A stretch of DNA of 64,000 nucleotides. It comes from Escherichia phage BAU.Micro_ELP-22. Position 1 is the first letter of the stretch; each line of letters opens with the position of its first letter. Both the position numbers and the translations under genes were made by a program. The stretch lies in sequence record OR699282.2; one strand, given 5' to 3'. This document shows, in pieces, positions 10,164-60,753 of this stretch. The notes beneath the pieces are model-generated. The model had not been told where the DNA came from. It worked only from the letters and a program-made list of their open reading frames with translations, and did not search any database.

Positions 10164-10228
10164 AATACTTGCAATTAGTTTTTAGTACTGTATAATGTTT
10201 TACATGAAGGGGAGAAATGATTCTCCCC
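10164..10228 (+). promoter_or_regulatory. PeSL-like promoter cassette
   Basis: TTGCAA 10169-10174, TATAAT 10191-10196, hairpin GGGGAGAAATGATTCTCCCC 10209-10228. Confidence 0.7.
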
Positions 10229-10246
10229 AATAACAGGAGAAACAAA

Positions 10247-10399: not shown

Positions 10400-10485
10400 G
10401 ATCATTAGCTTATTACAGTTCGGCCCTGGTCGGTGCATTGATCGCGGCGTTGTTAGTAACCTATCTATTCTTTATGGTGATTTAA
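10396..10485 (+). CDS. tiny hydrophobic peptide (29 aa), candidate membrane peptide
   Basis: ATG 10396 overlaps upstream stop (ATGA); single hydrophobic stretch SALVGALIAALLVTYLFFMVI. Confidence 0.4.
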   Translation: MRSLAYYSSALVGALIAALLVTYLFFMVI

Positions 10486-10629
10486 ATGAATCCAACAGGT
10501 TTAAACTATAAAAGTTGTTCGGCATTTACGAAAGCAAATAAAGCGAATGCACGTAAAGCGAAAGTACAGGAATACATCAAGCAAGGCATGACGCGAAAGG
10601 CGGCGATTCTAAAAGCTAAAAATAAATGA
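10486..10629 (+). CDS. small basic protein (47 aa)
   Basis: ATG 10486 directly after TAA of preceding peptide; Lys-rich; not in ORF track. Confidence 0.35.
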   Translation: MNPTGLNYKSCSAFTKANKANARKAKVQEYIKQGMTRKAAILKAKNK

Positions 10630-10638
10630 AAAAAGTGG

Positions 10639-10717
10639 TTGACTCCGGTCAGCCATTTTGCTATTATATATTCATTGAGAGATAGCTCACTAGCCCACAG
10701 GGTGCAGGAGTGTATCT
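10639..10717 (+). repeat. Repeated intergenic element, type A
   Basis: TTGACTCCGGTCAG..TATTATAT then CATTGAGAGATAGCTCACTAGCCCACAGGGTGCAGGAGTGTATCT. Confidence 0.6.
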
Positions 10718-10766
10718 ATTGTATAATGTTTGAGTACTGAAAACTATTTTAAAGTATTTGATAAAA

Positions 10767-10830
10767 AGTACTTGCAAACTATCTCAATAAGCGTATAATG
10801 TTTTACATCGCAAGGGGAAACGGTTTCCCC
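10767..10830 (+). promoter_or_regulatory. PeSL-like promoter cassette
   Basis: AGTACT 10767-10772, TTGCAA 10772-10777, TATAAT 10794-10799, hairpin GGGGAAACGGTTTCCCC 10814-10830. Confidence 0.7.
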
Positions 10831-10850
10831 TAGTAATAAGGAAACGAATC

Positions 10851-11192
10851 ATGACTATCTCAATTGCTCAATCTAACTTTGAAAATGAAATCATCGCCCA
10901 GGCACTGCGTTTAAATGATGGTCGGGCCGAAATCAATTACGGTTTCAATTCAGGCGGTTGTGAAAAATATCAGTACTTTGTAACGGCTGATGGCGGTGTC
11001 CTGGGTATCAATACAGTTATTGTAAACATCCAAAAAATTAATTTCAATGATCCAGACGATAGCCAGTTTTACATCACTGGCGTAGACGTGAACTATGAGG
11101 ATGACTCACTAACTGATGATCACACTGGTGAGCGGTTAGAAAGTGCATACGGTGAAGATGATTATCAGTCCGGTCCAGAAGATTTCGAATAA
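10851..11192 (+). CDS. acidic hypothetical protein (113 aa) with D/E-rich C-terminal tail
   Basis: ATG 10851; C-terminal third strongly acidic (DDSLTDDHTGERLESAYGEDDYQSGPEDFE). Confidence 0.7.
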   Translation: MTISIAQSNFENEIIAQALRLNDGRAEINYGFNSGGCEKYQYFVTADGGVLGINTVIVNIQKINFNDPDDSQFYITGVDVNYEDDSLTDDHTGERLESAYGEDDYQSGPEDFE

Positions 11193-11206
11193 TATAAAAA
11201 AATAGT

Positions 11207-11265
11207 TTGACAATAGATTATAGTACTGTATAATAGTTTACATCAAGGGGAGAATAGTTCTCCCC
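11207..11265 (+). promoter_or_regulatory. PeSL-like promoter cassette
   Basis: TTGACA 11207-11212, TATAAT 11229-11234, hairpin GGGGAGAATAGTTCTCCCC 11247-11265. Confidence 0.7.
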
Positions 11266-11287
11266 ACTAACAGAGAGAGAAAACAAA

Positions 11288-11500
11288 ATGGCTAATATCC
11301 GGTCGAAATTAAAAAATGCAAAACAAGTTTTATTTTCAGATCATGAATACTTTAATAAAGATATTACAGGAGTTACAAGTATCAAGGAAGTAAAAGAAAA
11401 AACCGGCGTTTTGTGTGATGTGCGATTAGTTGGAACATTTGGGAATAACGTGCTATATCGCTGCGGTGATTACAATTTTACACTGACTATCATTAACTAA
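11288..11500 (+). CDS. hypothetical protein (70 aa)
   Basis: ATG 11288, SD-like GAGAGAGA. Confidence 0.65.
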   Translation: MANIRSKLKNAKQVLFSDHEYFNKDITGVTSIKEVKEKTGVLCDVRLVGTFGNNVLYRCGDYNFTLTIIN

Positions 11501-11512
11501 AAATATTATCAC

Positions 11513-11548
11513 AGTACTATTGACATAGTTTGATAGTACTGACATAAT
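11513..11548 (+). promoter_or_regulatory. Class-II promoter
   Basis: AGTACT 11513-11518, TTGACA 11520-11525, AGTACT 11535-11540, CATAAT 11543-11548. Confidence 0.65.
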
Positions 11549-11582
11549 AACTTTTATCAACTACACTACTAAGGAATTAAAA

Positions 11583-11762
11583 ATGGCTATCATCGCAAAA
11601 ACTGAAATCATCGGCCTGGATTCTATCATCATGACGTTTGAAGATCAAAAAGGTATGTATGTGGTTTCCTATGGTGATTATGTTCGGGAGTATGAAACGG
11701 TAGACGAAGCCTTTGAAAGTTACATTCGCCAGGTGAATAAAGCATACGACGACTACCGCTAA
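11583..11762 (+). CDS. hypothetical protein (59 aa), not in ORF track
   Basis: ATG 11583 with SD AAGGAA; downstream of class-II promoter. Confidence 0.55.
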   Translation: MAIIAKTEIIGLDSIIMTFEDQKGMYVVSYGDYVREYETVDEAFESYIRQVNKAYDDYR

Positions 11763-11773
11763 AATATATTACC

Positions 11774-11817
11774 AGTACTATTAAATCTATTGACAATGTT
11801 TGATAGTACTGTATAAT
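11774..11817 (+). promoter_or_regulatory. Class-II promoter
   Basis: AGTACT upstream, TTGACA 11790-11795, TATAAT 11812-11817. Confidence 0.6.
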
Positions 11818-11861
11818 AAGTTTTATCAACAGTAGTTAACTTAACCTAAGAGAGAAACAAA

Positions 11862-12005
11862 ATGATCGCACTGGATTCATTCATCGACGCAGTACTGGCA
11901 AAAACTGGCGAGGATCTGACCGCAGAACAATACGCAATGATCGAGCAATGCCAGCAAGACGGTAAATCGGTGAAAGATACTGTTAAGATTATCCGCAAGA
12001 TGTAA
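11862..12005 (+). CDS. hypothetical protein (47 aa), not in ORF track
   Basis: ATG 11862 with SD AAGAGAGA; followed by stem-loop 12012-12037. Confidence 0.5.
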   Translation: MIALDSFIDAVLAKTGEDLTAEQYAMIEQCQQDGKSVKDTVKIIRKM

Positions 12006-12011
12006 GATTAT

Positions 12012-12040
12012 AGCCCACTGGTTAACGCTGGTGGGCTTTA
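12012..12040 (+). terminator. Stem-loop, possible terminator (weak U-run)
   Basis: AGCCCAC..GTGGGCT then TTTAATTC. Confidence 0.45.
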
Positions 12041-12110
12041 ATTCATTACCCTATACAATGCCAGTACTAAACCGTTTATCTCGTTAGAATGCGTTACAGG
12101 ACGTTTAACA

Positions 12111-12308
12111 ATGATTAGCATGAAATCAGTACAAAAACAAATAGAAACATTATCAAAAATTAAACGTAAACAGTACTCCTTAGAATATACAATCAATGGT
12201 AACTATCATCTAATGAAAGAAAATAATTTTATAGTCATTGATGAATCATTGCAAATCATTAGTATAGTACTGAAAGCATTAATCAATGACAGAAAAAAAT
12301 TAAAATAA
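12111..12308 (+). CDS. hypothetical protein (65 aa)
   Basis: ATG 12111; weak SD; AT-rich. Confidence 0.4.
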   Translation: MISMKSVQKQIETLSKIKRKQYSLEYTINGNYHLMKENNFIVIDESLQIISIVLKALINDRKKLK

Positions 12309-12312
12309 ACTA

Positions 12313-12388
12313 TTGACAATATCATCCAGTACTGGCATAATACTTACATCAAGACGAGAACGTCACTAACCCATAGGGTGCACAAATG
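12313..12388 (+). repeat. Repeated intergenic element (B-type sequence, plus orientation)
   Basis: TTGACA 12313-12318, CATAAT 12336-12341, then ACATCAAGACGAGAACGTCACTAACCCATAGGGTGCACA. Confidence 0.55.
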
Positions 12389-12403
12389 TAACTGTATAAT
12401 ATT

Positions 12404-12434
12404 GATCAAAAAATGATCTGATCAATACTTGATC
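12404..12434. promoter_or_regulatory. Cluster of four GATC sites (TGATCA repeats)
   Basis: GATC at 12404, 12415, 12420, 12431 within 31 bp, directly downstream of TATAAT 12395-12400. Confidence 0.4.
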
Positions 12435-12639
12435 AATTTGCGTAAAGTAGTATAATTCTATGCAGTTGGTTAGACGAAAGGTTATGATTAGTAGTGCAAG
12501 TGTATAAAAATTTTCATGGTGTATCGTTCCGCACATATGGGGATGAATATGTGGTATCATGTGGATTGGAAAAAGTAAGAACAAGTAATATTATTGTCGC
12601 ATTACAGTACTATAGTATTTTTATAATGAGGTTAAAATA

Positions 12640-12897
12640 ATGGCTGTAGGATTCGCGAAAGATGGGGCCGAACAAGACGAGATTAACGCAGTGATTCAGG
12701 CTGCCGTTAACCACGCTAGAAAGCAAATTAACGCACAAATAGAATCACTGATACATTGCCTCGACTGCGGCGATATAATCCCTGAGAAACGACGCCAGGC
12801 CGTTAAGGGATGTAAGTACTGCATAACTTGCCAGGAGGATCATGATAGTACTTTTAAACGTCCCCCGCGTAATTGTTGGCATAGATCTATGAGATAA
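12640..12897 (+). CDS. TraR/DksA-family C4 zinc-finger protein (85 aa)
   Basis: C-x2-C...C-x2-C (CLDCGDIIPEKRRQAVKGCKYCITC) C-terminal zinc-finger arrangement typical of TraR/DksA; SD GAGG. Confidence 0.7.
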   Translation: MAVGFAKDGAEQDEINAVIQAAVNHARKQINAQIESLIHCLDCGDIIPEKRRQAVKGCKYCITCQEDHDSTFKRPPRNCWHRSMR

Positions 12898-12904
12898 AAA
12901 GTAA

Positions 12905-12932
12905 TTGACAGTACTGAAAGATAGTGTATAAT
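12905..12932 (+). promoter_or_regulatory. sigma70-like promoter
   Basis: TTGACA 12905-12910, 16-bp spacer with CAGTACTG, TATAAT 12927-12932. Confidence 0.65.
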
Positions 12933-12961
12933 GTTTTATATCTTAACTGAGGATAGTAATC

Positions 12962-13318
12962 ATGGGAATACAACATATCACGCGTACTACTGACAATGGC
13001 GAGATCACTGGCTATCAAGTACAGGGCAAAGTAGCACAATTGCAGTACTGGTTTGTTAAACGTGGAATCATTGCACCGGATCTTGATTATGACCGTGTAG
13101 CGTTTATTGATTCTCTTTATGTTGATCCTGATAGTCGGGGCAATGGTGAAGGTAACGAATTAATGAATGCCTTTATCGATGCCGCCGATGATTCAGATTG
13201 TATCATCTTAGAATGCGATACGGGAGAAGATAACGCCTTTAATCTTAAAGAATGGTACGAAGGTTTCGGATTCGAGGTATTGATAGATAGTGAATATCCT
13301 ATCATGATTTTATCATAG
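12962..13318 (+). CDS. GNAT-family N-acetyltransferase (118 aa)
   Basis: IDSLYVDPDSRGNGEGNELMNAFIDAA matches the GNAT acetyl-CoA binding motif (V-x-P-x-x-R-G-x-G); SD GAGGA. Confidence 0.65.
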   Translation: MGIQHITRTTDNGEITGYQVQGKVAQLQYWFVKRGIIAPDLDYDRVAFIDSLYVDPDSRGNGEGNELMNAFIDAADDSDCIILECDTGEDNAFNLKEWYEGFGFEVLIDSEYPIMILS

Positions 13319-13378
13319 TACTTGCATTTAGTTTTCAGTACTGTTATAGTACTTGCATCAAGGGGAAACATCTTCCCC
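13317..13378 (+). promoter_or_regulatory. PeSL-like promoter cassette
   Basis: AGTACT 13317-13322, TTGCAT 13322-13327, TATAGT 13345-13350, hairpin GGGGAA-ACAT-CTTCCCC 13363-13378. Confidence 0.6.
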
Positions 13379-13396
13379 TACTAAGAGGAAATAAAA

Positions 13397-13585
13397 ATGG
13401 AAAACTTATCAAGTATTTTAGTACAAGATGATTTCGGTAATCCTGGAAGTGCTATCATTGTTCGGGGTAATAAAGCAACATTTGTTATTGCTGGTGGACC
13501 TGTACAGCGTAGCATTAAAAACAATGCCGTTACTATTAATAATGTACGCTATCGCTTAGATAAAGAATTGATTCATAAACTGTAA
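13397..13585 (+). CDS. hypothetical protein (62 aa)
   Basis: ATG 13397, SD AAGAGGAA. Confidence 0.65.
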   Translation: MENLSSILVQDDFGNPGSAIIVRGNKATFVIAGGPVQRSIKNNAVTINNVRYRLDKELIHKL

Positions 13586-13612
13586 TATTAATTTAATAGA
13601 GGATAACAATAA

Positions 13613-13936
13613 ATGTACATTCATACTACTATCACAAAGGAAGTCCGTTGCCAGTTCGAAAGTATTCCGGGCGTATGTTTCATCACTGGTACGTTTTCCC
13701 CTGGTGATCGTGATAATCCAGTACTGTTACAATTACGCCATCCATCATGGGATAAAGCATTTGATCTACCGTTGAATGAATTCGCAACTACTGCTGAAAA
13801 GTACATTAAAAATATTCGCGAGAATGATCGACTATTCATTAATGCTTTTAGTGATTCCGCGTTAAGCGAGATCCACGGCGTATTGGTTGCAATCATGGAA
13901 TCAATGCAGAAAACTAAATTCAAACAAGGTGAATAA
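13613..13936 (+). CDS. hypothetical protein (107 aa)
   Basis: ATG 13613, SD AGAGGA; no own promoter, likely co-transcribed. Confidence 0.65.
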   Translation: MYIHTTITKEVRCQFESIPGVCFITGTFSPGDRDNPVLLQLRHPSWDKAFDLPLNEFATTAEKYIKNIRENDRLFINAFSDSALSEIHGVLVAIMESMQKTKFKQGE

Positions 13937-13942
13937 AAACTA

Positions 13943-14002
13943 TTGACAATGCAATCCAGTACTGTATAATAAGTTACATGAAGGGGAGAAATGATTCTCC
14001 CC
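13943..14002 (+). promoter_or_regulatory. PeSL-like promoter cassette
   Basis: TTGACA 13943-13948, TATAAT 13965-13970, hairpin GGGGAGAAATGATTCTCCCC 13983-14002. Confidence 0.7.
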
Positions 14003-14019
14003 ACTGAGAGGAAAGAAAA

Positions 14020-14232
14020 ATGCAAGGTCAACTAATCGTTCGTAAATGGTCTGATACTAACGAAAAACCGTGGGATGTACAATACATCGGACCGGATGGG
14101 GTATCACGTTATCAGCCTGGCGTAACGCATAGTACTGAGCAATATGCCGCCGCTCACCGCGAACGCCTGTTAGAATCCATGAAACAGGGATACGGTGAAA
14201 AATTCATTCAAGATCATTGGCTGAAAGATTAA
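14020..14232 (+). CDS. hypothetical protein (70 aa)
   Basis: ATG 14020, SD GAGAGGAAAG. Confidence 0.7.
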   Translation: MQGQLIVRKWSDTNEKPWDVQYIGPDGVSRYQPGVTHSTEQYAAAHRERLLESMKQGYGEKFIQDHWLKD

Positions 14233-14249
14233 TAGAAGGAGTACAGCTT

Positions 14250-14342
14250 ATGCAAATGAATCCGATGATTATTGTTTTAGCTGTACTTATGATCATTCAT
14301 GCAATTGTAGAAGTATTAACGCAATCAGGAGTAATAAAATGA
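14250..14342 (+). CDS. tiny hydrophobic peptide (30 aa), candidate membrane peptide
   Basis: ATG 14250 with strong SD AAGGAG at 7 nt; MQMNPMIIVLAVLMIIHAIVEVL hydrophobic; not in ORF track. Confidence 0.5.
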   Translation: MQMNPMIIVLAVLMIIHAIVEVLTQSGVIK

Positions 14343-14512
14343 TTCAAGTAGAATTATCAGTACTGAAAGATCTGTTTTATCGGTTAGGTACTACTGGAGA
14401 GTATCCTAAAAGTGATACCGCAAAACTTTTTGTATCACTCGACTTATGGCAACGCGAACAATTAGTAATGTCCTGGCGTAAAGGTAAAGCAGATAGCGAG
14501 GTGAAAGCATGA
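14339..14512 (+). CDS. hypothetical protein (57 aa)
   Basis: ATG 14339 overlaps upstream stop (ATGA); not in ORF track. Confidence 0.45.
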   Translation: MIQVELSVLKDLFYRLGTTGEYPKSDTAKLFVSLDLWQREQLVMSWRKGKADSEVKA

Positions 14513-14658
14513 AAGAATTCTTATTCGAAGTAGTGTTTCAAGGTGTCGGTAGTAACCAACTGATTCGCTCAAGTGGTTACAATGTTAACCAGGCATGGAA
14601 TAACATTAAACAAATGTACCCGAACGCTATCACCTATCGCAACCCGAAAGAAGTTTAA
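14509..14658 (+). CDS. hypothetical protein (49 aa)
   Basis: ATG 14509 overlaps upstream stop (ATGA); third member of a coupled mini-operon. Confidence 0.45.
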   Translation: MKEFLFEVVFQGVGSNQLIRSSGYNVNQAWNNIKQMYPNAITYRNPKEV

Positions 14659-14686
14659 AAATAATTGAAAAAGGGATTGACTCCGG

Positions 14687-14750
14687 TCAGTCCCTTTGCT
14701 ATTATATACGCATAGAAACAAATCAGCCCACAGGGTGCATAAATGTATCT
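14687..14750 (+). repeat. Repeated intergenic element, type A
   Basis: TTGACTCCGGTCAGTCCCTTTGCTATTATAT then CGCATAGAAACAAATCAGCCCACAGGGTGCATAAATGTATCT. Confidence 0.6.
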
Positions 14751-14790
14751 ATTGTTAGCTGGTGGCTAGTACTGAAAACTATTTTTAAAA

Positions 14791-14823
14791 AGTACTTGCA
14801 TTGTACTTAGAATCAAGTATAAT
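14791..14823 (+). promoter_or_regulatory. PeSL-type promoter driving non-coding element
   Basis: AGTACT 14791-14796, TTGCAT 14796-14801, TATAAT 14818-14823. Confidence 0.65.
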
Positions 14824-14830
14824 GTTTTAC

Positions 14831-14903
14831 ATCAGGACGGGGAACGAAACAAGTAACCCCGTTAAGTAGTCCAGGAGTAAGACATACGAAAACCTCCCCT
14901 GAT
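14831..14903 (+). ncRNA. Candidate small structured RNA (second copy)
   Basis: ATCAGGACGGGGAACGAAACAAGTAACCCCGTTAAGTAGTCCAGGAGTAAGACATACGAAAACCTCCCCTGAT; same layout as 3706-3780. Confidence 0.4.
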
Positions 14904-14911
14904 AAAAAAGA

Positions 14912-14940
14912 TTGACAATAGTTTGAAGTACTGATAAAAT
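14912..14940 (+). promoter_or_regulatory. sigma70-like promoter
   Basis: TTGACA 14912-14917, 17-bp spacer with AGTACT, TAAAAT 14935-14940. Confidence 0.5.
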
Positions 14941-14972
14941 AATCACATCAACTACTGATAAGGAAACATAAA

Positions 14973-15248
14973 ATGCGGATTCTACTGACAGCTAACGAAA
15001 TCGAACAAGTACTGACTACTAACCTGGAAGACTGGAAACGTGAAGCAGATATCCAGGCGGTTCAATGGCTTAACGATAAGTTAACGCCGGATGACTTAAG
15101 CAAGATTGTAGATCCTCAATTCTACGAAGATATTCACGACACCGCGTTAAGCGTCGAGGATGTACTAGATAAGCACTACATTGATACTGATTTGCAGGTT
15201 TACGGTCGTAAAAACTTTATCACTATTCACGATATTTACAATAATTAA
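14973..15248 (+). CDS. hypothetical protein (91 aa)
   Basis: ATG 14973, SD AAGGAA. Confidence 0.7.
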   Translation: MRILLTANEIEQVLTTNLEDWKREADIQAVQWLNDKLTPDDLSKIVDPQFYEDIHDTALSVEDVLDKHYIDTDLQVYGRKNFITIHDIYNN

Positions 15249-15249
15249 G

Positions 15250-15310
15250 TATTGACAAAGTATCTTAGTACTGTATAATAGTTTACATCGAGAGGGGGAA
15301 TGGTTCCCCT
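15250..15310 (+). promoter_or_regulatory. PeSL-like promoter cassette (identical 44-bp promoter, copy 1 of 3)
   Basis: TTGACA 15252-15257, TATAAT 15274-15279, hairpin GGGGGAATGGTTCCCC; same promoter at 15519 and 18096. Confidence 0.7.
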
Positions 15311-15334
15311 CCTAACTAAAAGAGAGAAATAAAA

Positions 15335-15517
15335 ATGGCTAAGTGCACTATCTGTAATAAAGAAATAGTATTAGTTCCAAGTGCCCGTGAACGTGCCGCT
15401 CGGTTCGGTGGCAAAGCGTCAGACTATACAAAAATGTTTACTGCCCATACAGCTTGCCAGGTAGCAAAACGTTCACAAGAAAGCGTAGAATTAATGCGTA
15501 AACTTTCCAAAAAATAA
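15335..15517 (+). CDS. small Cys-containing protein (60 aa)
   Basis: ATG 15335; CTICNKE ... HTACQ possible zinc-ribbon; SD-like AGAGAGA. Confidence 0.65.
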   Translation: MAKCTICNKEIVLVPSARERAARFGGKASDYTKMFTAHTACQVAKRSQESVELMRKLSKK

Positions 15518-15518
15518 G

Positions 15519-15582
15519 TATTGACAAAGTATCTTAGTACTGTATAATAGTTTACATCAAGTGAGGGGAAACGGTTCCCCTC
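15519..15582 (+). promoter_or_regulatory. PeSL-like promoter cassette (copy 2 of 3)
   Basis: TTGACA 15521-15526, TATAAT 15543-15548, hairpin GAGGGGAAACGGTTCCCCTC 15564-15582. Confidence 0.7.
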
Positions 15583-15605
15583 CTAACAAAGAGAGAGAAA
15601 TAAAA

Positions 15606-15929
15606 ATGGCTATGATCCTTACCCAGAAAGTGGAACTGAAAATTGTAACCTCCTTTGACATTAACGTTAATCGGTGGACTGATTCACACGGCAATACTTA
15701 CCACTCTTGCTACGTGTCTGCTTTAATTGGCGACCGCTGGGAAGACCTGGGACACGAAACCTTTACATACGGTTACGGTACACAAGGCGAATACACGGGC
15801 TTGGAGATCATTAAAGAAACCGTTATAGGTTTCAACCCGAAAGAAAAAGTTATTCACCGCATCGAGGAAGAGATCAACAAAGAAATAACAGTTCGCTACC
15901 ACGATGTAAAACGTAAGAAAGACATGTAA
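15606..15929 (+). CDS. hypothetical protein, early paralog family C (107 aa)
   Basis: Track ORF 15561 trimmed to ATG 15606; paralog of 8398..8721. Confidence 0.7.
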   Translation: MAMILTQKVELKIVTSFDINVNRWTDSHGNTYHSCYVSALIGDRWEDLGHETFTYGYGTQGEYTGLEIIKETVIGFNPKEKVIHRIEEEINKEITVRYHDVKRKKDM

Positions 15930-15943
15930 TAGAATCCATTTAA

Positions 15944-15980
15944 AGTACTATTTGACATTGCCCAGATAGTACTTTATAAT
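15944..15980 (+). promoter_or_regulatory. Class-II promoter
   Basis: AGTACT 15944-15949, TTGACA 15952-15957, 17-bp spacer with AGTACT, TATAAT 15975-15980. Confidence 0.65.
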
Positions 15981-16024
15981 AGACTCTAACTTGTAGTACT
16001 AACTTAACTAATAGGATGTATACC

Positions 16025-16420
16025 ATGATTACTAAATTCTACGCTACCCGTGAAGCTGCCCGTATTGTTGCACGCGAGGAAGGCGAAACATTTAAAGACA
16101 TGGGCAAAGATGCACCGAAAGGTCAACGCTGGGCCGTACAGTTCAAAGAGATCTCTGATATTGTGAATTCACCGGAGCCAGTACTAACAGCAGCAGAACT
16201 AAAACGAGCGGATTTACTGGCGTCAATACTTGATGCACAAGATGAGTTTATCGCTGATTCTGATATCAAAGTACAGACAAACCATACCGCATGGACTCAC
16301 GCGGATCACCTGGCAAACCTTAAGCGTCCAAGTGAACTGATTCGCAACCAGAAAGAGATCCGACACGACCGTAAGGGTAATCGTGTAACAGTATACAGTA
16401 AACGCCGCCAGGTTATCTAA
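16025..16420 (+). CDS. hypothetical protein, early paralog family B (131 aa)
   Basis: ATG 16025 (SD AGGA at 8 nt; alternative ATG 16016); paralog of 2837..3103. Confidence 0.65.
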   Translation: MITKFYATREAARIVAREEGETFKDMGKDAPKGQRWAVQFKEISDIVNSPEPVLTAAELKRADLLASILDAQDEFIADSDIKVQTNHTAWTHADHLANLKRPSELIRNQKEIRHDRKGNRVTVYSKRRQVI

Positions 16421-16441
16421 TAACTTGCAGTACTAACAACA

Positions 16442-16468
16442 CGGCGGGATCAGTTCCCGCCTTTTTTA
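16442..16468 (+). terminator. Rho-independent terminator
   Basis: GGCGGGA-TCAG-TTCCCGCC then TTTTTTA. Confidence 0.75.
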
Positions 16469-16481
16469 TAGGACAAACAAA

Positions 16482-16736
16482 ATGATTAAGGTTCAACTAT
16501 ATAAAGATAACATCTTACGGGTACACTATAAAGCACCACAGAGAATCATCACAAAGGCCGTACAGCTTGCTAATGAGTTTATTAATGGTAACCTATTACC
16601 TAGGAAGTTAAGCAACGGGAAACTGCGTGTAATCGACGTGGACACTAACAACAGGATAGTAATCGAGAACACAGGAAAGATAAACCTTTATGAGCATCAA
16701 CAATACAATAAGAAAATAAAACTAATATCACGTTGA
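16482..16736 (+). CDS. hypothetical protein (84 aa)
   Basis: ATG 16482; SD weak. Confidence 0.6.
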   Translation: MIKVQLYKDNILRVHYKAPQRIITKAVQLANEFINGNLLPRKLSNGKLRVIDVDTNNRIVIENTGKINLYEHQQYNKKIKLISR

Positions 16737-16790
16737 CAGTACTCAAATGTTTTAGTACTATATGTACATACCAACACGGGGAGAAACAAA

Positions 16791-17033
16791 ATGATTACTT
16801 TAGAAAAACGTATCAAAGAAACTACATCGCTGGTGGAACTGTTAACAGTACTCAAATGTAAAACTACTCGGTTTAGTACACCGGACTTTATTAATATGGT
16901 TGATGTTAACGGTCGTTATCGTATTGCAGTAGAACAAGGCACGGCAAAAGTATTCAGTACTAAAAACACTAAGGAAGTGATTCACGCGGTTAGTGTGAAA
17001 AAAGTGGTTGCCATTGATAGTAAAGTACTGTAA
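16791..17033 (+). CDS. hypothetical protein (80 aa)
   Basis: ATG 16791, SD GGGGAG. Confidence 0.65.
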   Translation: MITLEKRIKETTSLVELLTVLKCKTTRFSTPDFINMVDVNGRYRIAVEQGTAKVFSTKNTKEVIHAVSVKKVVAIDSKVL

Positions 17034-17064
17034 GATAGTTTCATTAACTCAAGGAGAACATGCA

Positions 17065-17649
17065 ATGCGTAATTATACTAAATTCATCCGTACCCTGTCA
17101 GAAATGGAAACCAACAAAGAGATCCTTTCAGCTTGTCGGTTAGCTGGCCTGGAGATCATCGGTGCTGGTTCTTCCCGTATAGTTTTCGCTTTAAATGATC
17201 GGTTAGTGATTAAGGTCGCGAATTGTGATGCGGGTGTAGAACAAAATGAAACTGAATGTAAGGTATGGAATTTTTTAGACTATGACCGCCCTCAGTTGAA
17301 ACAGTACTTTGCAAAGGTGCATATGCATTTATGCGATCCTGATAATATGTTTATCGTTATGGATCGGTTGAGTACTGCAAGCAAAGGCAGTGTGAAGCAC
17401 GTAAACGCGTGCAATGAATTAAAGTACAATATTAAACGTAATGCAATCGAACGCCAGCACCGCTTTGCTGATGCACTACAACACGTTGATGATACATTAT
17501 CAACACTAACGATAAGAGATATCAGAAAACAGAATATCGGCCAGGATCGTAATGGACTTATTAAAGTACTTGATTACGGTTTAACCAGCAATATCTGGAA
17601 TCAGTACTATAAAAAGCGTGATGTGGCAGCAAGTAAGGTAACACGATAA
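17065..17649 (+). CDS. minimal Ser/Thr protein kinase-like protein (194 aa)
   Basis: Track ORF 17008 trimmed to ATG 17065 (SD AAGGAG, 8 nt); Gly-rich loop GAGSSRIVF, Lys in VIKVAN, catalytic-loop-like RDIRKQNIG, DFG-like LDYG. Confidence 0.65.
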   Translation: MRNYTKFIRTLSEMETNKEILSACRLAGLEIIGAGSSRIVFALNDRLVIKVANCDAGVEQNETECKVWNFLDYDRPQLKQYFAKVHMHLCDPDNMFIVMDRLSTASKGSVKHVNACNELKYNIKRNAIERQHRFADALQHVDDTLSTLTIRDIRKQNIGQDRNGLIKVLDYGLTSNIWNQYYKKRDVAASKVTR

Positions 17650-17667
17650 AAAAGATTAAAAAAGGGA

Positions 17668-17746
17668 TTGACTCCGGTCAGTCCCTTTGCTATTATATAT
17701 CCATTGAGAGATAACTCACTGACCCATAGGGTGCGGAAGTGTATCT
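17668..17746 (+). repeat. Repeated intergenic element, type A
   Basis: TTGACTCCGGTCAGTCCCTTTGCTATTATAT then CATTGAGAGATAACTCACTGACCCATAGGGTGCGGAAGTGTATCT. Confidence 0.6.
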
Positions 17747-17785
17747 ATTATATAAGTATTCAGTACTGAAAACTATTTGATAAAA

Positions 17786-17850
17786 AGTACTTGCATTGTA
17801 CTTAGAATCAAGTATAATGTTTTATATCGAGAGGGGGAAATGGTTCTCCC
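17786..17850 (+). promoter_or_regulatory. PeSL-like promoter cassette
   Basis: AGTACT 17786-17791, TTGCAT 17791-17796, TATAAT 17813-17818, hairpin GGGGGAAATGGTTCTCCC 17833-17850. Confidence 0.7.
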
Positions 17851-17872
17851 TGGTATATTAAGGAATAAAATC

Positions 17873-18094
17873 ATGACTACAATGACTTGCATTTACGCTT
17901 CCAATCTTCTGAATGATGCGGCCTTTAATGTTGATTCAGAATATCAATGTTATCGGGATGAAAATAAAAAAGTTTTTGTAGTTGATAATAATGGTTTCCA
18001 TATTGAATTGCAATCCGGTTTCACTGGTGTTGATGGTAAATCAGTATGGGGCGTACAGGATGATAAAGGCACATATCATTTTAAACGTAATTAA
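17873..18094 (+). CDS. hypothetical protein (73 aa)
   Basis: Track ORF 17777 trimmed to ATG 17873; SD AAGGAA. Confidence 0.7.
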   Translation: MTTMTCIYASNLLNDAAFNVDSEYQCYRDENKKVFVVDNNGFHIELQSGFTGVDGKSVWGVQDDKGTYHFKRN

Positions 18095-18095
18095 G

Positions 18096-18156
18096 TATTG
18101 ACAAAGTATCTTAGTACTGTATAATAGTTTACATCAAGGGGAGAATAGTTCTCCCC
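18096..18156 (+). promoter_or_regulatory. PeSL-like promoter cassette (copy 3 of identical promoter)
   Basis: TTGACA 18098-18103, TATAAT 18120-18125, hairpin GGGGAGAATAGTTCTCCCC 18138-18156. Confidence 0.7.
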
Positions 18157-18180
18157 ACACCAATAAAAGGAAACATAATT

Positions 18181-18453
18181 ATGTCTAGCTACTCCGCTAC
18201 TATGATCATTAAAGATATGAACGGTAATCCTACTTCTGCTGGTGGATCATTTGGAAACATTAATTTAGATGGTCGGTTATCCATGCAATCAGCAATCGAT
18301 GCAGCGAAAGAAGTTTTTAAGAATGAATGTACTGTTAGTAAGCTGGATTATATGGGATTTGCTATCGAAAAAACTAATCGTTTTGTGAACTACAAAAAAC
18401 CATTGATGATTGATACTAACCTGAAAGCTAACGAAGTGGAGTACTTATTATGA
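18181..18453 (+). CDS. hypothetical protein (90 aa)
   Basis: ATG 18181, SD AAAGGAAA. Confidence 0.7.
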   Translation: MSSYSATMIIKDMNGNPTSAGGSFGNINLDGRLSMQSAIDAAKEVFKNECTVSKLDYMGFAIEKTNRFVNYKKPLMIDTNLKANEVEYLL

Positions 18454-18641
18454 CAGTTGAAGAAGTTAAAAAAGTACTGGCAGTACTACGCTATCATAAT
18501 CATTGCAAGGTGAAGAATGATCCTGATTATCTCGATTCATCCCTGGAAGAGGATACACTACAAGCAATAAGCCATATGCAAACATTAGCAAAGCGTATGA
18601 CTGAAAAGAACATGCCGGACTATATCGGAAATAAAATTTAA
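18450..18641 (+). CDS. hypothetical protein (63 aa)
   Basis: ATG 18450 overlaps upstream stop (ATGA). Confidence 0.6.
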   Translation: MTVEEVKKVLAVLRYHNHCKVKNDPDYLDSSLEEDTLQAISHMQTLAKRMTEKNMPDYIGNKI

Positions 18642-18643
18642 AA

Positions 18644-18710
18644 AGTACTTGCATTGTAGTTAGATTAACGTATAATGTTTTATATCGAGAGGGGGAAATG
18701 GTTTCCCCTC
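18644..18710 (+). promoter_or_regulatory. PeSL-like promoter cassette
   Basis: AGTACT 18644-18649, TTGCAT 18649-18654, TATAAT 18671-18676, hairpin GAGGGGGAAATGGTTTCCCCTC 18687-18710. Confidence 0.7.
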
Positions 18711-18728
18711 AAGTCCAGGAGATACACC

Positions 18729-18992
18729 ATGAACACTATCGAAATCACTATCAATGCACACGTATACGACAACGTAGTACTGCAAACTACTATGACCGCT
18801 AATGATACCAGTACTTTGCGGAATACTGTTATTAGTGCCGTATGTGCCGCTATCGGTGATGTCGCCCTGGAAAATGCAAAACACGTAAACGATGGTTTCA
18901 CTATGTGCAAACGTGATAACGCAAAACATATCATCGTAGAAGGTTACGGCGGTGTAGAATATAATGTTTATATGAAAAAAGTACTTGCATAA
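18729..18992 (+). CDS. hypothetical protein (87 aa)
   Basis: Track ORF 18675 trimmed to ATG 18729 (SD AGGAGA); C-terminal codons overlap -35 of next PeSL. Confidence 0.7.
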   Translation: MNTIEITINAHVYDNVVLQTTMTANDTSTLRNTVISAVCAAIGDVALENAKHVNDGFTMCKRDNAKHIIVEGYGGVEYNVYMKKVLA

Positions 18993-19041
18993 TAACTAAA
19001 ACAAAGTATAATGTTTTGCATAGGGGGAGATATCCTCCCCC
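18980..19041 (+). promoter_or_regulatory. PeSL-like promoter cassette
   Basis: AGTACT 18980-18985, TTGCAT 18985-18990, TATAAT 19007-19012, hairpin GGGGGAGATATCCTCCCCC 19023-19041. Confidence 0.7.
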
Positions 19042-19059
19042 ACTAAAAGGAGTAATAAA

Positions 19060-19284
19060 ATGGCTAACTTTGATGAACTGATGCGGGAAGTAGCTACCCT
19101 GGCAGAAGAAAAGAAATCATTCGATTCTATCTATAGCACCGCTCACCGTGATTCAGTACTGGCATGTAACCAGGATCAAAAAGATGAACTAATCGCCACC
19201 TATCATGAAGCATGGAAGTACTACCGACAATGGGAGAAAGAAGAAAGAGAGTCTACCATTGACGGCCTCAATAATCTAATCTAA
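19060..19284 (+). CDS. hypothetical protein (74 aa)
   Basis: ATG 19060, SD AAGGAG. Confidence 0.7.
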   Translation: MANFDELMREVATLAEEKKSFDSIYSTAHRDSVLACNQDQKDELIATYHEAWKYYRQWEKEERESTIDGLNNLI

Positions 19285-19296
19285 AAGTTTTATTTC

Positions 19297-19333
19297 AGTA
19301 CTATTGACATAGCTTGATAGTACTGATGTAATA
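19297..19333 (+). promoter_or_regulatory. Class-II promoter
   Basis: AGTACT 19297-19302, TTGACA 19304-19309, AGTACT in spacer, -10-like GTAATA. Confidence 0.55.
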
Positions 19334-19360
19334 ACTTTACTAACTACAAGGGGAAACATA

Positions 19361-19618
19361 ATGGAACAGTTCACACAATATCGGGTAAATCCTCAAGCTA
19401 TGGCCTACGTAGAAGACCATAAAACATTACCAGTACTAACACCAATTAAAGGCCATATCTATCGTGCAATGTCATGGAATACCGCCCAGGATAGATATAC
19501 TACCGCTGGCGTGGGTATGTATTGCGGGAATGGTGAATGGTTTGATCCAAATAATCCGGTAGCCATTGACAGTACTGAAAAAATGAAATGGGCCGACTAC
19601 ATCGAAGATATTTCATAA
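19361..19618 (+). CDS. hypothetical protein (85 aa)
   Basis: ATG 19361, SD GGGGAAA. Confidence 0.65.
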   Translation: MEQFTQYRVNPQAMAYVEDHKTLPVLTPIKGHIYRAMSWNTAQDRYTTAGVGMYCGNGEWFDPNNPVAIDSTEKMKWADYIEDIS

Positions 19619-19625
19619 AAACTAT

Positions 19626-19686
19626 TTGACAGTACTAACCAGTAATGTATAATGTTTTACATAGAGCGGGGGAATAGTTCTCCCGC
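19626..19686 (+). promoter_or_regulatory. PeSL-like promoter cassette
   Basis: TTGACA 19626-19631, TATAAT 19648-19653, hairpin GCGGGGGAATAGTTCTCCCGC 19666-19686. Confidence 0.7.
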
Positions 19687-19708
19687 CAATAGTTTGGAGT
19701 AAAACATT

Positions 19709-19909
19709 ATGTCTATCGCTATCGCCCTGGTTGAAGTACTGAAAGAAGCTAAAGCCAACCAGATCGACGTAAAGATCCAGGAACTACAAAACGGCGTAAT
19801 CGGCTGTACTTGTACCGCTGGTGGAGCGGCAGACTATCGAGAACACGAATCACTCGAATCACTGGTTCGGTATCTTACCATGATCGTTGATGATTGGAGA
19901 ATCATCTAA
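19709..19909 (+). CDS. hypothetical protein (66 aa)
   Basis: ATG 19709, SD GGAG. Confidence 0.65.
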   Translation: MSIAIALVEVLKEAKANQIDVKIQELQNGVIGCTCTAGGAADYREHESLESLVRYLTMIVDDWRII

Positions 19910-19930
19910 CAAAAAAGAATAAAAAAGGGA

Positions 19931-20004
19931 TTGACTCCGGTCAGTCCCTTTGCTATTATATACGCATAGACAAAAACTAGCCCACAGGGTGCATAGGTGT
20001 ATCC
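19931..20004 (+). repeat. Repeated intergenic element, type A
   Basis: TTGACTCCGGTCAGTCCCTTTGCTATTATAT then CGCATAGACAAAAACTAGCCCACAGGGTGCATAGGTGTATCC. Confidence 0.6.
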
Positions 20005-29248: not shown

Positions 29249-29606
29249 AAAAGTAATATTTCTTTTGAATACCAGAAGTGAATTGTATACAGAGTTAAAA
29301 GAGATTAATGCATTTTATCAGAATTTTGTAATCCAAGAGATCAGTGATTTAATTACAGATGCATTATTTGAATTCTCGGAGAAATACAAAGGTTCAGAGT
29401 TCAGTGTTAAGAATGTTATTCGTCCAAGTGCAAGGAAAATTATATTATCACATTTTACATTTGACAATAAAGATTTATTCAGTCATAATCCAAGTACAGC
29501 TTTATATTTTATTCCTGATTCAGACAAAAATCATCCTATTCATTACGGATGGATTTTGTCATATATAGTACAAGGAAAGGAGTATCCTATTAAATGGAAA
29601 GATTAG
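29214..29606 (+). CDS. hypothetical protein (130 aa)
   Basis: Long ORF in array, no family core recognised. Confidence 0.5.
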   Translation: MNMNPEIVQDLKKVIFLLNTRSELYTELKEINAFYQNFVIQEISDLITDALFEFSEKYKGSEFSVKNVIRPSARKIILSHFTFDNKDLFSHNPSTALYFIPDSDKNHPIHYGWILSYIVQGKEYPIKWKD

Positions 29607-56495: not shown

Positions 56496-56627
56496 ATGGC
56501 TAAGAAAGTAAACAATTTCGTACAGAAACACATGAATGAGTTTAACAAGCCTCAGACACATGTTGATCGTAAGAAAGAAATGAAAAATGGTAAAGTAAAA
56601 CACAAGTCGAGATTTATTCTCGACTAA
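56496..56627 (+). CDS. small basic protein (43 aa), not in ORF track
   Basis: ATG 56496 with SD GGAG at 5 nt; Lys-rich. Confidence 0.45.
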   Translation: MAKKVNNFVQKHMNEFNKPQTHVDRKKEMKNGKVKHKSRFILD

Positions 56628-57523: not shown

Positions 57524-57817
57524 ATGGATACTAAATTCAAAGTTATATTTAAAACTAAGCCGTATATTCCGCATACAGCAGAACGTTTTATACCACATGG
57601 TGCAGAGGAAATTATTCACCATGATGGTACAAAGTTATATCTAGTGCCATGTTCATATGAACGTGCAGTAGAAATGTTACTCATGAATTCTAAATTATGT
57701 ACAAACAAGTACATTAGCTACTTATACAATGAACATATTTTAGATTTTAATGATGAAAATATGTTTATTCTAGCAATTGAAGATTTTAATAATTGGTACA
57801 ACATTATTAAAATCTGA
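57524..57817 (+). CDS. hypothetical protein (97 aa)
   Basis: ATG 57524, SD GGAGGA. Confidence 0.65.
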   Translation: MDTKFKVIFKTKPYIPHTAERFIPHGAEEIIHHDGTKLYLVPCSYERAVEMLLMNSKLCTNKYISYLYNEHILDFNDENMFILAIEDFNNWYNIIKI

Positions 57818-57825: not shown

Positions 57826-57863
57826 TTGTGAACATATTAAATCTTTATGATATAATGTTCACA
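57826..57863 (+). promoter_or_regulatory. Promoter overlapped by 9-bp inverted repeat (candidate operator)
   Basis: TGTGAACAT 57827-57835 and ATGTTCACA 57855-57863 flank/overlap TATAAT 57851-57856. Confidence 0.5.
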
Positions 57864-57887
57864 TCTTTTTTGATAATGGAGATATAG

Positions 57888-58274
57888 ATGAATACAAGTT
57901 CAATCCTAAAAGCAATTGGTGGTGTTTTACTTATTGAAGTGAAAGGTGAACCAAAACTATGCTGTTTGGAAGATATGAAGAATACAAAACACTTCAGTAC
58001 TGGTCAGATTTTTAATGCCATTCGTGTTCTAAATGATAAATCAATCGCTGATTATGGTAAAGTTTGGCCTGTATATCAAAACGCAGAGGGTGATATCAGT
58101 TCTGACTGGAAAACCATCGAAGCAGTTCGACAAAGTTGCGATAGTGACTGGGACTTTATTGTCGAAGTATGTGATCAACTACAAGAAGATGTTCCAGAAA
58201 TTGTCGAACGAAAAGAAGTCCTAGCACGACTTGAAAAATTCCGTCACGGAACACTACAGTATGACACAATCTAA
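57888..58274 (+). CDS. hypothetical protein (128 aa)
   Basis: ATG 57888, SD GGAG. Confidence 0.65.
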   Translation: MNTSSILKAIGGVLLIEVKGEPKLCCLEDMKNTKHFSTGQIFNAIRVLNDKSIADYGKVWPVYQNAEGDISSDWKTIEAVRQSCDSDWDFIVEVCDQLQEDVPEIVERKEVLARLEKFRHGTLQYDTI

Positions 58275-58639: not shown

Positions 58640-58669
58640 GACGGGATATAATATCTCGTCTTTTTTTTT
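58640..58669 (+). terminator. Rho-independent terminator
   Basis: GACGGGATAT..ATATCTCGTC stem then nine T. Confidence 0.8.
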
Positions 58670-58681: not shown

Positions 58682-59530
58682 ATGAAACTTTATCTAATCG
58701 TTGACTACAGTAAGGGTTATTATGACTACGCAGAAGAATCTGAAGGGTATTGCTCGTCTACTAATGTCAATGTACGCACCAGTAGTACACATGAGCATGA
58801 ATCTATTACAAACCTAAAAGATTTCATCGCATATCGAGCATTTGAAAAGAATTTCTGTCGTAGTAGATATTCGAAGTTTGAGTACCCGTTAATTGATGTT
58901 CCTGATGAATTGATGTTCCAGTTAATGCTCACTGGAGTACAAGATTATGATTACATCGCGTACAATCACATTACTAAGAAAATTTATATCGGTACGTCAA
59001 CACATGACATTTCTATGTATGCATCATGCCCCGATGATCGAATGAATGATAGAAAATCATACTATAGTGGATCAGTTGGTTCAAATGATTCATTAAATAA
59101 AAATTTATTCTTTGAGTACGAGTTTGATAATCATCGAGGGAAAAAAGACCGAGAAGATTATTGTACTGAAATTGATAGTACCAATGGATATGAAGAAGTG
59201 AAAGAAGCGATAATGCCATATATCCTTGACAAGTACTACAAAGATTTTCAGTACTGTAGTAATTTTCTAATCCGAAATTCTATCATAATCGGTCGTCAAA
59301 GTACTGCATTCTCTAAGTACTACAATGATTCCCCTGTTGCTGAAAATGAAAACTGTAATATTCTCTCAATCCCACGTGAAGATATGGTATTCATGTTCAC
59401 ATCTTTCATTGAAGATGATGAGTTGTATGTAAAAAACAAGCACAGGTTCATGCCAAGTAAGATTGAGGTTATGAGAAGCTTAAGTGCAGATATCTTAACT
59501 AATTTCACTGAAAAAACAGAATACAACTGA
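58682..59530 (+). CDS. hypothetical protein (282 aa)
   Basis: ATG 58682, SD GGAGA. Confidence 0.65.
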   Translation: MKLYLIVDYSKGYYDYAEESEGYCSSTNVNVRTSSTHEHESITNLKDFIAYRAFEKNFCRSRYSKFEYPLIDVPDELMFQLMLTGVQDYDYIAYNHITKKIYIGTSTHDISMYASCPDDRMNDRKSYYSGSVGSNDSLNKNLFFEYEFDNHRGKKDREDYCTEIDSTNGYEEVKEAIMPYILDKYYKDFQYCSNFLIRNSIIIGRQSTAFSKYYNDSPVAENENCNILSIPREDMVFMFTSFIEDDELYVKNKHRFMPSKIEVMRSLSADILTNFTEKTEYN

Positions 59531-59560
59531 GACATACCATAAGTTTATGATATAATGTAA

Positions 59561-59594
59561 GGTGACAGCAGAATATGTTGTCGCCTTTTTTTTT
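59561..59594 (+). terminator. Rho-independent terminator
   Basis: GGTGACAGC-AGAATAT-GTTGTCGCC (G-U tolerant) then nine T. Confidence 0.7.
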
Positions 59595-60132
59595 AATCCT
59601 GAAAGGTTCCATATGGAAATGATTAAAGCCTAATCCACTCGAAAAGTAGAGGGTAGATGAGTAGTCCTTTCAGTACGAACAGCAAATGAAACCCGTTAGA
59701 TGATGGCATAGTTTGAACCACTCACGGCAATGCGGCTGTATAAAGAACTCCAATAGGATAAAGAGAGTTCCTCGATAGACATATAAGGATCGCACCTTAC
59801 CAATTATCTAAGGGAGATTTCATGAGAAATTTGCGGTCGTAATTTATACAAAATAGTTGCGTCCAAAATTCGTGAAATCAAATACAAGTACTGGTCATAT
59901 GGTATTTGTATTATGTGTCGGGATGTTTAAGACCGACGACCGTTGCTACAAGAACCGCGATAGAGAGAAACAGAGCAACCCGCTTTCGTCTCGTAAGAGA
60001 ATTCGTGATATGAACTATGTGAAGGCCACCAGCGTCAAACTTTTTTGTTCTTTCCCCTGCGGGGGGATGAAATATGCTCAAGCAAACCCCGTCAATATTA
60101 ATTAAAAGAAAATAGTACTTGTAGAATTAGAC
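59595..60132. other. Non-coding island, GC-richer than flanks
   Basis: No ORF with RBS; contains hairpin TCCCCTGCGGGGGGA near 60052-60068; no tRNA-like T-loop seen. Confidence 0.45.
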
Positions 60133-60753
60133 ATGCGTAGCATGGTAATTCTACTGATGTTGATGGAATCAACGTCACGTATATTCATTGATGTTTCCAT
60201 AGGAATAATGATGGCATTTATTAGAAAACAAAAAACTTTTACCTATAAGACTTTGGATTTTGTTGATTGTGAAAACCAATTACAAGATGAAGATAACTTT
60301 ACAGGATTTGTTGTTATTAAAGAAAAAGGATGCATTTCGTATATAAAGGAATTACAGAACGGCATTGAAGTTACTTCAGTCAAATTACTTCCTACACAAA
60401 AACCAACAATATTAAAAGCACAGTATGGTAATTATTTCGAGGAAAGATATAGTAATAATTTAATAAGTGTTAAGGCTCATATTATAAAAGGAGAACTAGA
60501 AGGAGAATATAGAAAATACAACCCACAAGGAAAATGTGTTTGGGTTAAATACTTCAATTCAGGAAATGATGTAACATCTGAAATAATTGAGTTTTTAGGT
60601 TTAACATGTACCCCTGAAACTCTTCATGATTACAAATTTAATACTGAAGAAGAGTTTAATCTGATGATGCGTTATGGTTCACATTTTAAATTTTTATATG
60701 AATATAACATTGACAGTAGTACTTTTGATAAGATAGTACAGAACTGTCTCTAA
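60133..60753 (+). CDS. hypothetical protein (206 aa; alternative start ATG 60208 with SD AGGAA)
   Basis: Long ORF; possible MORN-like G..Y..NG repeats (weak). Confidence 0.55.
   Translation: MRSMVILLMLMESTSRIFIDVSIGIMMAFIRKQKTFTYKTLDFVDCENQLQDEDNFTGFVVIKEKGCISYIKELQNGIEVTSVKLLPTQKPTILKAQYGNYFEERYSNNLISVKAHIIKGELEGEYRKYNPQGKCVWVKYFNSGNDVTSEIIEFLGLTCTPETLHDYKFNTEEEFNLMMRYGSHFKFLYEYNIDSSTFDKIVQNCL

Follow-up and report, generated by a model that had tools for sequence, protein, structure and literature searches.

Does the inverted repeat at the promoter of gene 57888..58274 mark an operator at which a dimeric repressor occludes transcription, as the original prediction held, or does its symmetry have another origin? 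The repeat lies in the window, by which we mean the whole stretch of 64,000 nucleotides from Escherichia phage BAU.Micro_ELP-22 (record OR699282.2) that was analysed here. Our comparison with related phages indicates that the site is very probably a promoter and not an operator. The best explanation of the locus as a whole is a promoter whose two arms are complementary as a by-product, and we see about an even chance that this explanation is right.

The phage that contributed the window belongs to the 121Q/PBECO4/SP27 group of Asteriusvirus jumbo coliphages. The 4.2 kb around the site match 59 phage records, all Asteriusvirus jumbo myoviruses of ~350 kb, the closest being SP27 with 95.6% identity, followed by PBECO4, 121Q, G17, UE-S1 and others with 90-94% identity. 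All genes near the site are encoded on the + strand and are labelled 'hypothetical' in the records of the relatives. Searches of Pfam and PHROGs with the ten genes around the site allowed us to name only a Dam methylase and a cytidylyltransferase-like protein, and a tRNA scan of the whole window found no tRNA gene. Genome-wide counts were made in the complete 347-kb genome of SP27, a relative of the window phage. For the comparison of orthologous genes we used 16 phage records and 32 loci from IMG/VR and metagenomes; a query with a single protein reached 121Q only and the other genera were reached with an alignment as query. The features discussed below are the following:

57524..57817, + strand: upstream gene of 97 aa (phrog_22921, a hypothetical-protein family), also annotated in relatives
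57827..57835, + strand: left arm TGTGAACAT, which includes the entire -35-like box
57829..57834, + strand: -35-like hexamer TGAACA, which is TGGACA in deeper-branching Asteriusviruses and corresponds to the class box (G/T)(G/A)GACA
57848..57856, + strand: extended -10 element TGaTATAAT, invariant in all Asteriusvirus relatives aligned
57855..57863, + strand: right arm ATGTTCACA, comprising the last 2 nt of the -10 element, the discriminator and the probable transcription start near A57863
57864..57871, + strand: T-tract TCTTTTTT, with 5-8 T in relatives and present in all Asteriusviruses
57878..57881, + strand: Shine-Dalgarno sequence GGAG, 6 nt before the ATG at 57888; a ribosome binding site is annotated equivalently in UE-S1
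57888..58274, + strand: downstream gene of 128 aa (phrog_15570, a hypothetical-protein family), conserved among RaK2-like jumbo phages
59529..59556, + strand: second promoter, likewise a class member (GAGACA, 16 nt, TGaTATAAT), which carries TTTATGATATAATGT at 59544-59558

The promoter of gene 57888..58274 and its class

The promoter call for gene 57888..58274 was borne out by the promoter elements themselves, by membership in a genome-wide class and by orthology. We regard the site as a predicted promoter of the sigma-70 family with an extended -10 element that serves this conserved gene. Its -10 hexamer TATAAT (57851-57856) matches the consensus at 6/6 positions, is invariant in 11 Asteriusvirus sequences and is preceded, one base 5', by the dinucleotide TG (57848-57849). 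The -35-like hexamer TGAACA, separated from the -10 element by a 16-nt spacer, agrees with TTGACA at 4/6 positions and the TGGACA of the relatives at 5/6. Based on the usual 7-nt distance to the -10 element, transcription probably starts near A57863; the distance between the -10 element and the ATG at 57888 is 32 nt. The T-tract downstream of the start would either give the gene's own transcript a U-rich 5' leader or serve as U-tract in a terminator of read-through transcripts. With extended -10 promoters of Escherichia coli sigma-70 the site shares the perfect TATAAT, the TG one base upstream and a purine 7 nt past the -10 element. Its -35-like hexamer, at a distance of 16 nt, matches theirs at 4/6 positions, and the consensus of its class box is GGGACA rather than TTGACA. 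Either host sigma-70 or a phage-encoded sigma factor would presumably direct transcription from this promoter. Our literature search retrieved no data on transcription starts or 3' ends for any Asteriusvirus.

Listing every extended -10 element in the complete SP27 genome revealed the class to which the promoter belongs. In Asteriusvirus its members consist of an A-rich upstream region, the box (G/T)(G/A)GACA, 16 nt and TGnTATAAT, often with GT next. The pattern [GTA][GA][GA]AC[AG]-N15-17-TA[TC]AAT with the TG has 30 matches on the + strand of SP27 and a single one on the - strand, compared with ~0.6 per strand in shuffled sequences. Nearly all of these copies are found 30-90 nt upstream of + strand genes, tRNA genes or copies of the RNA element described below, and the genes downstream include gyrB, clpP and ClpA. 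The SP27 orthologue of the window promoter (189379) matches the class pattern and the window copy is a variant with a weak box. The -10 context TTTATGATATAATGT had been reported to recur at 59544-59558; this recurrence is exact, with a further copy at 56084 that has one mismatch. It recurs at 59544 because both promoters belong to one genome-wide class: the second promoter (window 59551) corresponds to the class member at 191080 of SP27.

A related class has been predicted in other jumbo phages. The report on phage CBB describes a divergent RpoD-like class with the box TGAAACG ('Promoter 1' in Table S6) and states that it also occurs in GAP32 (PMC5259590). In the CBB/GAP32 lineage we find the class in the form TGAAAC(G)-N17-TGnTATAAT. 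The CBB promoter Porf_66, given in Table S6 as TGAAACAGAATAATTTTTTATGGTATAAT at 29,539-29,567 (PMC5259590), is located just upstream of the orthologue of gene 57888..58274 in the CBB contig (L036) and hence is the orthologous promoter. Both versions of the class share the extended -10 element TGnTATAAT, an A/T-rich 3' half of the spacer, a non-canonical -35 element 16-17 nt upstream and a location on the + strand just before genes. They differ in the box, which is (G/T)(G/A)GACA in Asteriusvirus (TGAACA in the window) but TGAAAC(G) in CBB and GAP32, and in the spacer of 16 nt in Asteriusvirus compared with 17 nt in the other lineage. In addition, the -35 region is complementary to the start region only in the Asteriusvirus copy of this promoter and not in that of CBB/GAP32. 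The Asteriusvirus version of the class was not described in the literature that we searched and is not marked in the Asteriusvirus records examined. The site itself adds a promoter to a class that had been predicted in related jumbo phages, and matters little on its own. The class (G/T)(G/A)GACA-N16-TGnTATAAT, on the other hand, is useful for annotation as it identifies ~30 transcription units per genome.

The inverted repeat and the conservation of its arms

The 9-bp inverted repeat is exactly as originally claimed: TGTGAACAT at 57827-57835 and ATGTTCACA at 57855-57863 are complementary at 9/9 positions and separated by a 19-nt spacer. They had also been described as bracketing the -35 and -10 elements. 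The arms are indeed located at the promoter, but they overlap its elements instead of flanking them. The centres of the arms (57831 and 57859) are 28 bp apart, and the right arm belongs to the conserved string TGATATAATGTTCACATC. If arms of 9 bp or more and a spacer of at most 40 nt are required, the window has 43 distinct perfect inverted repeats compared with 15.6 ± 4.4 in sequences shuffled under a first-order Markov model, and a lone 9-bp repeat is weak evidence in such A+T-rich DNA. As a stricter null model, we paired -35 regions with start regions taken from other promoters of the class. Of these cross pairs, 0.9% are complementary over 9 bp or more and 0.1% over 10 bp or more. Since at least 9 bp are reached by only 0.9% of the cross pairs, the repeat is unusual for one promoter but marginal across ~30. 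The orthologous site in SP27 has a complementarity of 10 bp between -35 and start region, the longest among the 30 class promoters of this genome. Within the same promoter, at least 7 bp are complementary in 5/30 class promoters compared with 6% of the cross pairs, an enrichment that is marginal. We considered a hairpin as a feature of the whole class and rejected it because the -35 and start regions of the same promoter are barely more complementary than cross pairs. The end of a repeat family or of a mobile element was likewise rejected, as the paired site has no second copy in the 347 kb of SP27.

The two arms are conserved independently of each other. Besides Asteriusvirus, the 7t3/Munch lineage (GGGACA, 17 nt, TGaTATAAT) and the GAP32/CBB/BF/Yen9-04 lineages (TGAAACA, 17 nt, TGgTATAAT) have an orthologous promoter before this gene, and RaK2 lacks it. 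Behind the -10 element, Asteriusvirus has TATAATGTTC(A/G)CATC and the GAP32 lineage TATAATGTAC(G/A)CACC. In the GAP32 lineage, the string TATAATGTACGCACC is accompanied by a -35 region with which it shares no complementarity. In SP27, the 20-mer TGTGATATAATGTTCACATC is also found behind two tandem TTGACA promoters (273409 and 273503), in both cases without the left arm. As the right arm is kept without the left arm in other genera and at other SP27 promoters, it represents a conserved module of core promoter and transcript start. Judged from this distribution, the right arm is the predicted end of the -10 element plus an old, conserved and putatively ancestral initial transcribed sequence (GTTCACATC), and the left arm is the predicted -35 box of the class with its flanks. 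The transcript start GT(T/A)C(G/A)CA(T/C)C (window 57857-57887) is kept across genera whose proteins are 48-62% identical. It is followed by a T-run in Asteriusvirus or an A-run in the 7t3 lineage and then by the ribosome binding site (orthologous leaders L024-L055).

When 11 Asteriusvirus sequences are aligned, variation is free in the spacer that separates the arms; fixed are the -35 core, the extended -10 element, TGATATAATGTTC, GTTC, CATC and the leader with its T-run, GATAA and ribosome binding site. The left arm occurs in the relatives as TGTGGACAT, TGTGGACAA or TCTGGACAT; the variant of the right arm is ATGTTCGCA. All of these changes are one-sided and among six haplotypes no pair has changed on both sides. 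Because the variants are never mirrored, the symmetry of the DNA drops to 6-8/9 outside the clade of 121Q, SP27 and the window: Watson-Crick symmetry is 6-8/9 in four of the six haplotypes, with 6-7/9 in deeper-branching relatives, and 10/10 in SP27 and 121Q. If the states of the outgroups are ancestral, complementarity grew over time. At the level of RNA, both arm positions that vary on one side yield G.U pairs on the + strand. Pairing is broken in three cells of two other pairs (A.A in ph0011 and C.C in A4 and L055). Altogether 97% of the cells pair if G.U is counted, with zero compensatory double changes. With six haplotypes, no double change and an uninformative shuffle control, however, this covariation test cannot tell RNA pairing from independent conservation.

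By-product, operator or terminator

In our preferred explanation, the two arms are two independently constrained parts of the promoter, namely the -35-like box on one side and the end of the -10 element with the initial transcribed sequence on the other. Their complementarity would most likely be a by-product that became perfect only in the clade of 121Q, SP27 and the window via two G-to-A transitions. That it has no function of its own is a reading that might prove right or wrong with similar probability. A dimeric or otherwise multimeric repressor that binds both arms and thereby occludes the -35 box and the start site is, in contrast, very improbable. Its appeal lies in the perfect dyad symmetry in the window, SP27 and 121Q, in the position of the arms, which cover the -35 box and +1 such that binding would repress, and in the many phage proteins of no known function here that leave room for a cognate binder. 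Classical dimeric operators occupy one face of the helix with 10-11 bp between the centres of their half-sites. The 28 bp at the present site correspond to 2.7 turns and would place the half-sites on different faces of B-DNA. The operator reading also failed every other test that could be run. A search for further paired sites returned two other exact half-sites in the window, both unpaired and in a number expected by chance. In the 347 kb of SP27, nine exact half-sites compare with 8.3 ± 2.6 expected, half-sites with at most one mismatch with 207 expected (132 found) and inverted pairs with at most three mismatches with 17.3 expected (12 found), such that the half-site is not enriched and only the orthologous site is a perfect pair. 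The suggested check for a small HTH protein nearby, made with Pfam and PHROGs, revealed no HTH domain among the ten neighbouring proteins. The one-sided changes that degrade the symmetry in the relatives and the presence of the right arm without the left at two other SP27 promoters and in other genera argue in the same direction. The site therefore shares with lambda OR/OL, the LexA box and the CRP site a dyad symmetry that overlaps promoter elements but differs from these classical operators in the distance between its centres, the missing second site, the poorly conserved symmetry and the lack of a cognate regulator among the proteins searched. The arms even contain the half-site pentamers of the CRP site TGTGA-N6-TCACA. 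We rejected a CRP site, as the distance between TGTGA and TCACA is 27 nt rather than 6 and the pentamers are degraded in relatives. Improbable, too, is an action of the complementarity on the DNA or on initiation, be it through extrusion of a hairpin or cruciform, promoter melting or promoter escape, or with the left arm as a longer recognition element for a phage sigma factor or activator combined with reiterative transcription at the T-run. Asteriusviruses have been reported to encode a sigma factor (PMC7247149, PMC13070987), the T-run begins at ~+2 to +4 and the complementarity of at least 7 bp within 5/30 class promoters exceeds that of the cross pairs. However, this excess is marginal, the length of the T-run drifts between 5 and 8 among close relatives, and a cruciform is energetically unlikely with A/T-rich 9-bp arms and a 19-nt loop.

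The more serious competitor of the by-product explanation is a composite of terminator and promoter, which we consider possible but doubtful. Here, the arms would pair in read-through transcripts from the upstream gene array, and the U-tract UCUUUUUU would complete an intrinsic terminator of low strength. The hairpin as proposed would combine a stem of 9 bp with a short inner helix and a terminal loop of 5 nt, and the promoter would be located within the loop of its own insulating terminator. Since the gene's own transcripts would start at the last base of the 3' arm, they would be devoid of the hairpin and escape termination. In such a 'promoter-in-the-loop' terminator, suggested tentatively from the sequence, the 5' arm would be the -35 box of the next unit and the 3' arm would end at its start site. 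Read-through RNA would thus end at the very base at which the new transcript begins, and the new transcript could not form the hairpin. Consistent with this proposal, the RNA folds with -10.9 kcal/mol (z = -2.6), and the closed hairpin flush with the T-tract reaches -10.1 kcal/mol, which ranks it at about position 16 of 352 T-tract candidates on the + strand and is comparable to terminators annotated in relatives at 58640-58660 and 56605-56625. The window contains 15 candidates of -10 kcal/mol or below compared with 2-6 in shuffled sequences; still, chance would account for ~30% of the candidates at such strength. On the same strand, the hairpin begins at 57827, 10 nt past the stop codon of the upstream gene (TGA at 57815-57817). 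Of five lineages folded, four retain the pairing with -9.6 to -11 kcal/mol, and the high share of pairing cells with G.U counted points the same way, but compensatory double changes are absent, and the A4-type hairpin is weak (-4.7 kcal/mol, z = +0.75) even though its T-tract persists. The T-tract directly 3' of the hairpin is common to all Asteriusviruses, yet outgroups carry A-runs at the same position of the leader and the T-run may therefore be just unstructured leader. The stem is A/U-rich with 3/9 G-C pairs, the 19 nt between the arms, although partly paired, exceed the usual loop of 3-8 nt, and the hairpin was called neither by a simple scan for loops of 3-8 nt nor in the ARNold-based annotations of G17 or among the terminator features of UE-S1. 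Composites of terminator and promoter do occur elsewhere in these genomes: SP27 has the arrangement GGGTTGACttcgGTCAGCCCtttttTGyTATAAT at 97385, 107734 and 109016, a terminator hairpin overlaps a -35 box at SP27 10435, and a covarying hairpin with a T-run immediately follows the promoter at 59551 and its orthologues. Nested modules of terminator and promoter are common in this phage group. The present site resembles the rho-independent terminators that overlap promoters in compact modules of phage genomes, as its hairpin directly adjoins a U-tract and is located a few nt past a stop codon. It differs from such modules in that the hairpin would enclose the whole promoter, in its A/U-rich stem with 19 nt between the arms and in the absence of covariation. 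Three observations count against a mere by-product: the repeat is the longest within the class of 30 SP27 promoters, the T-tract that directly adjoins it is the longest T run beside any class promoter and terminator-like together with the repeat, and the one-sided substitutions in the arms fit RNA pairing. If the terminator reading is right, the site would be a compact insulator geometry of modest interest and one of several nested terminator/promoter insulator geometries of RaK2-like jumbo phages.

A structured RNA, AGTACT and further observations

Several observations beyond the site emerged from this analysis. A 13-bp perfect inverted repeat of almost exclusively A/T, AGATTTTAATAAT and ATTATTAAAATCT (57781-57793 and 57803-57815, 9-nt spacer), marks the extreme 3' end of the upstream gene and directly adjoins the stop codon. 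In the SP27 modules with GGGTTGACttcgGTCAGCCCtttttTGyTATAAT (L018:47340-47400; L019:7690-7745 and 8970-9025, corresponding to SP27 97385, 107734 and 109016), the -35 hexamer lies within the terminator stem and the T-run within the spacer. AGCGGGataaaCCCGCTgtttgTGaTATAAT at L017:10395-10445 of SP27 is a similarly compact case of terminator and promoter. A single intergenic region of 400 bp in SP27 contains three tandem strong promoters (273280-273540; L022:23280-23540), each combining TTGACA and TGTGATA(T/C)AAT with an A-tract; a 94-bp direct repeat harbours two of them, which carry the same TGTGATATAATGTTCACATC as the promoter of gene 57888..58274.

Behind the second class promoter (59529-59556), downstream of gene 57888..58274, come a hairpin with its T-run (59559-59587) and 540 nt without a credible reading frame. 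This region contains a non-coding element of ~480 nt (window 59590-60132), probably driven by the second promoter, that has a raised G+C content and is more conserved than the flanking genes. The element matches 61 phage records with 67-76% DNA identity, from phages with hosts ranging from Escherichia to Xanthomonas, and occurs across all genera of RaK2-like jumbo phages with 4-5 copies per genome. The four copies of SP27, among them L018:38990-39441, L021:46415-46944 and L023:25303-25776, are each located 40-50 nt downstream of their own class promoter. A signature 23-mer of the element was found at 41 places in IMG/VR, nearly all of them in contigs of 350-380 kb. RNAalifold predicted 73 pairs for ten copies, 41 of which are supported by compensatory double changes. 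Rfam 15 gave no match for the whole window at the gathering score or for 59500-60250 at E <= 1. The ~480-nt element is a strong candidate for an undescribed family of large structured RNAs. This RNA and the excess of AGTACT described below are more interesting than the site itself and each merits an evaluation of its own.

Palindromic hexamers deviate from expectation in both directions. Throughout the SP27 genome (L017-L023), CCATGG, AGGCCT and AGCGCT have 0 copies compared with ~32 expected, and CCCGGG, CCGCGG and CGCGCG have 0 copies compared with ~8 expected; the missing of these G+C-containing palindromes fits restriction-site avoidance. The palindrome AGTACT, in turn, has 255 copies in the window, where ~16 would be expected, and 912 in SP27, where the expectation is ~100-118. 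It is 8- to 16-fold over-represented, usually as cAGTACTg, and by far the most enriched palindromic hexamer. AGTACT is present in all three reading frames and between genes, with the highest density at window 1-20000, and a search of the literature yielded nothing on AGTACT in jumbo phages. It also occurs within strong early promoters in the form AGTACTGTATAAT. These promoters constitute a second, very strong class that consists of TTGACA, 9 nt, AGTACTG and TATAAT, followed by agtttACAT, with -10 hexamers in the window at 388, 6240, 11229, 11812, 13965, 15274, 15543, 15975, 18120 and 19648. As another AGTACT is often found upstream of the -35 element, this element is bracketed by an inverted repeat containing AGTACT, for example at 11773-11811 and 15941-15976. 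The AGTACT promoters are better candidates for a promoter embedded in an inverted repeat than the site studied here.
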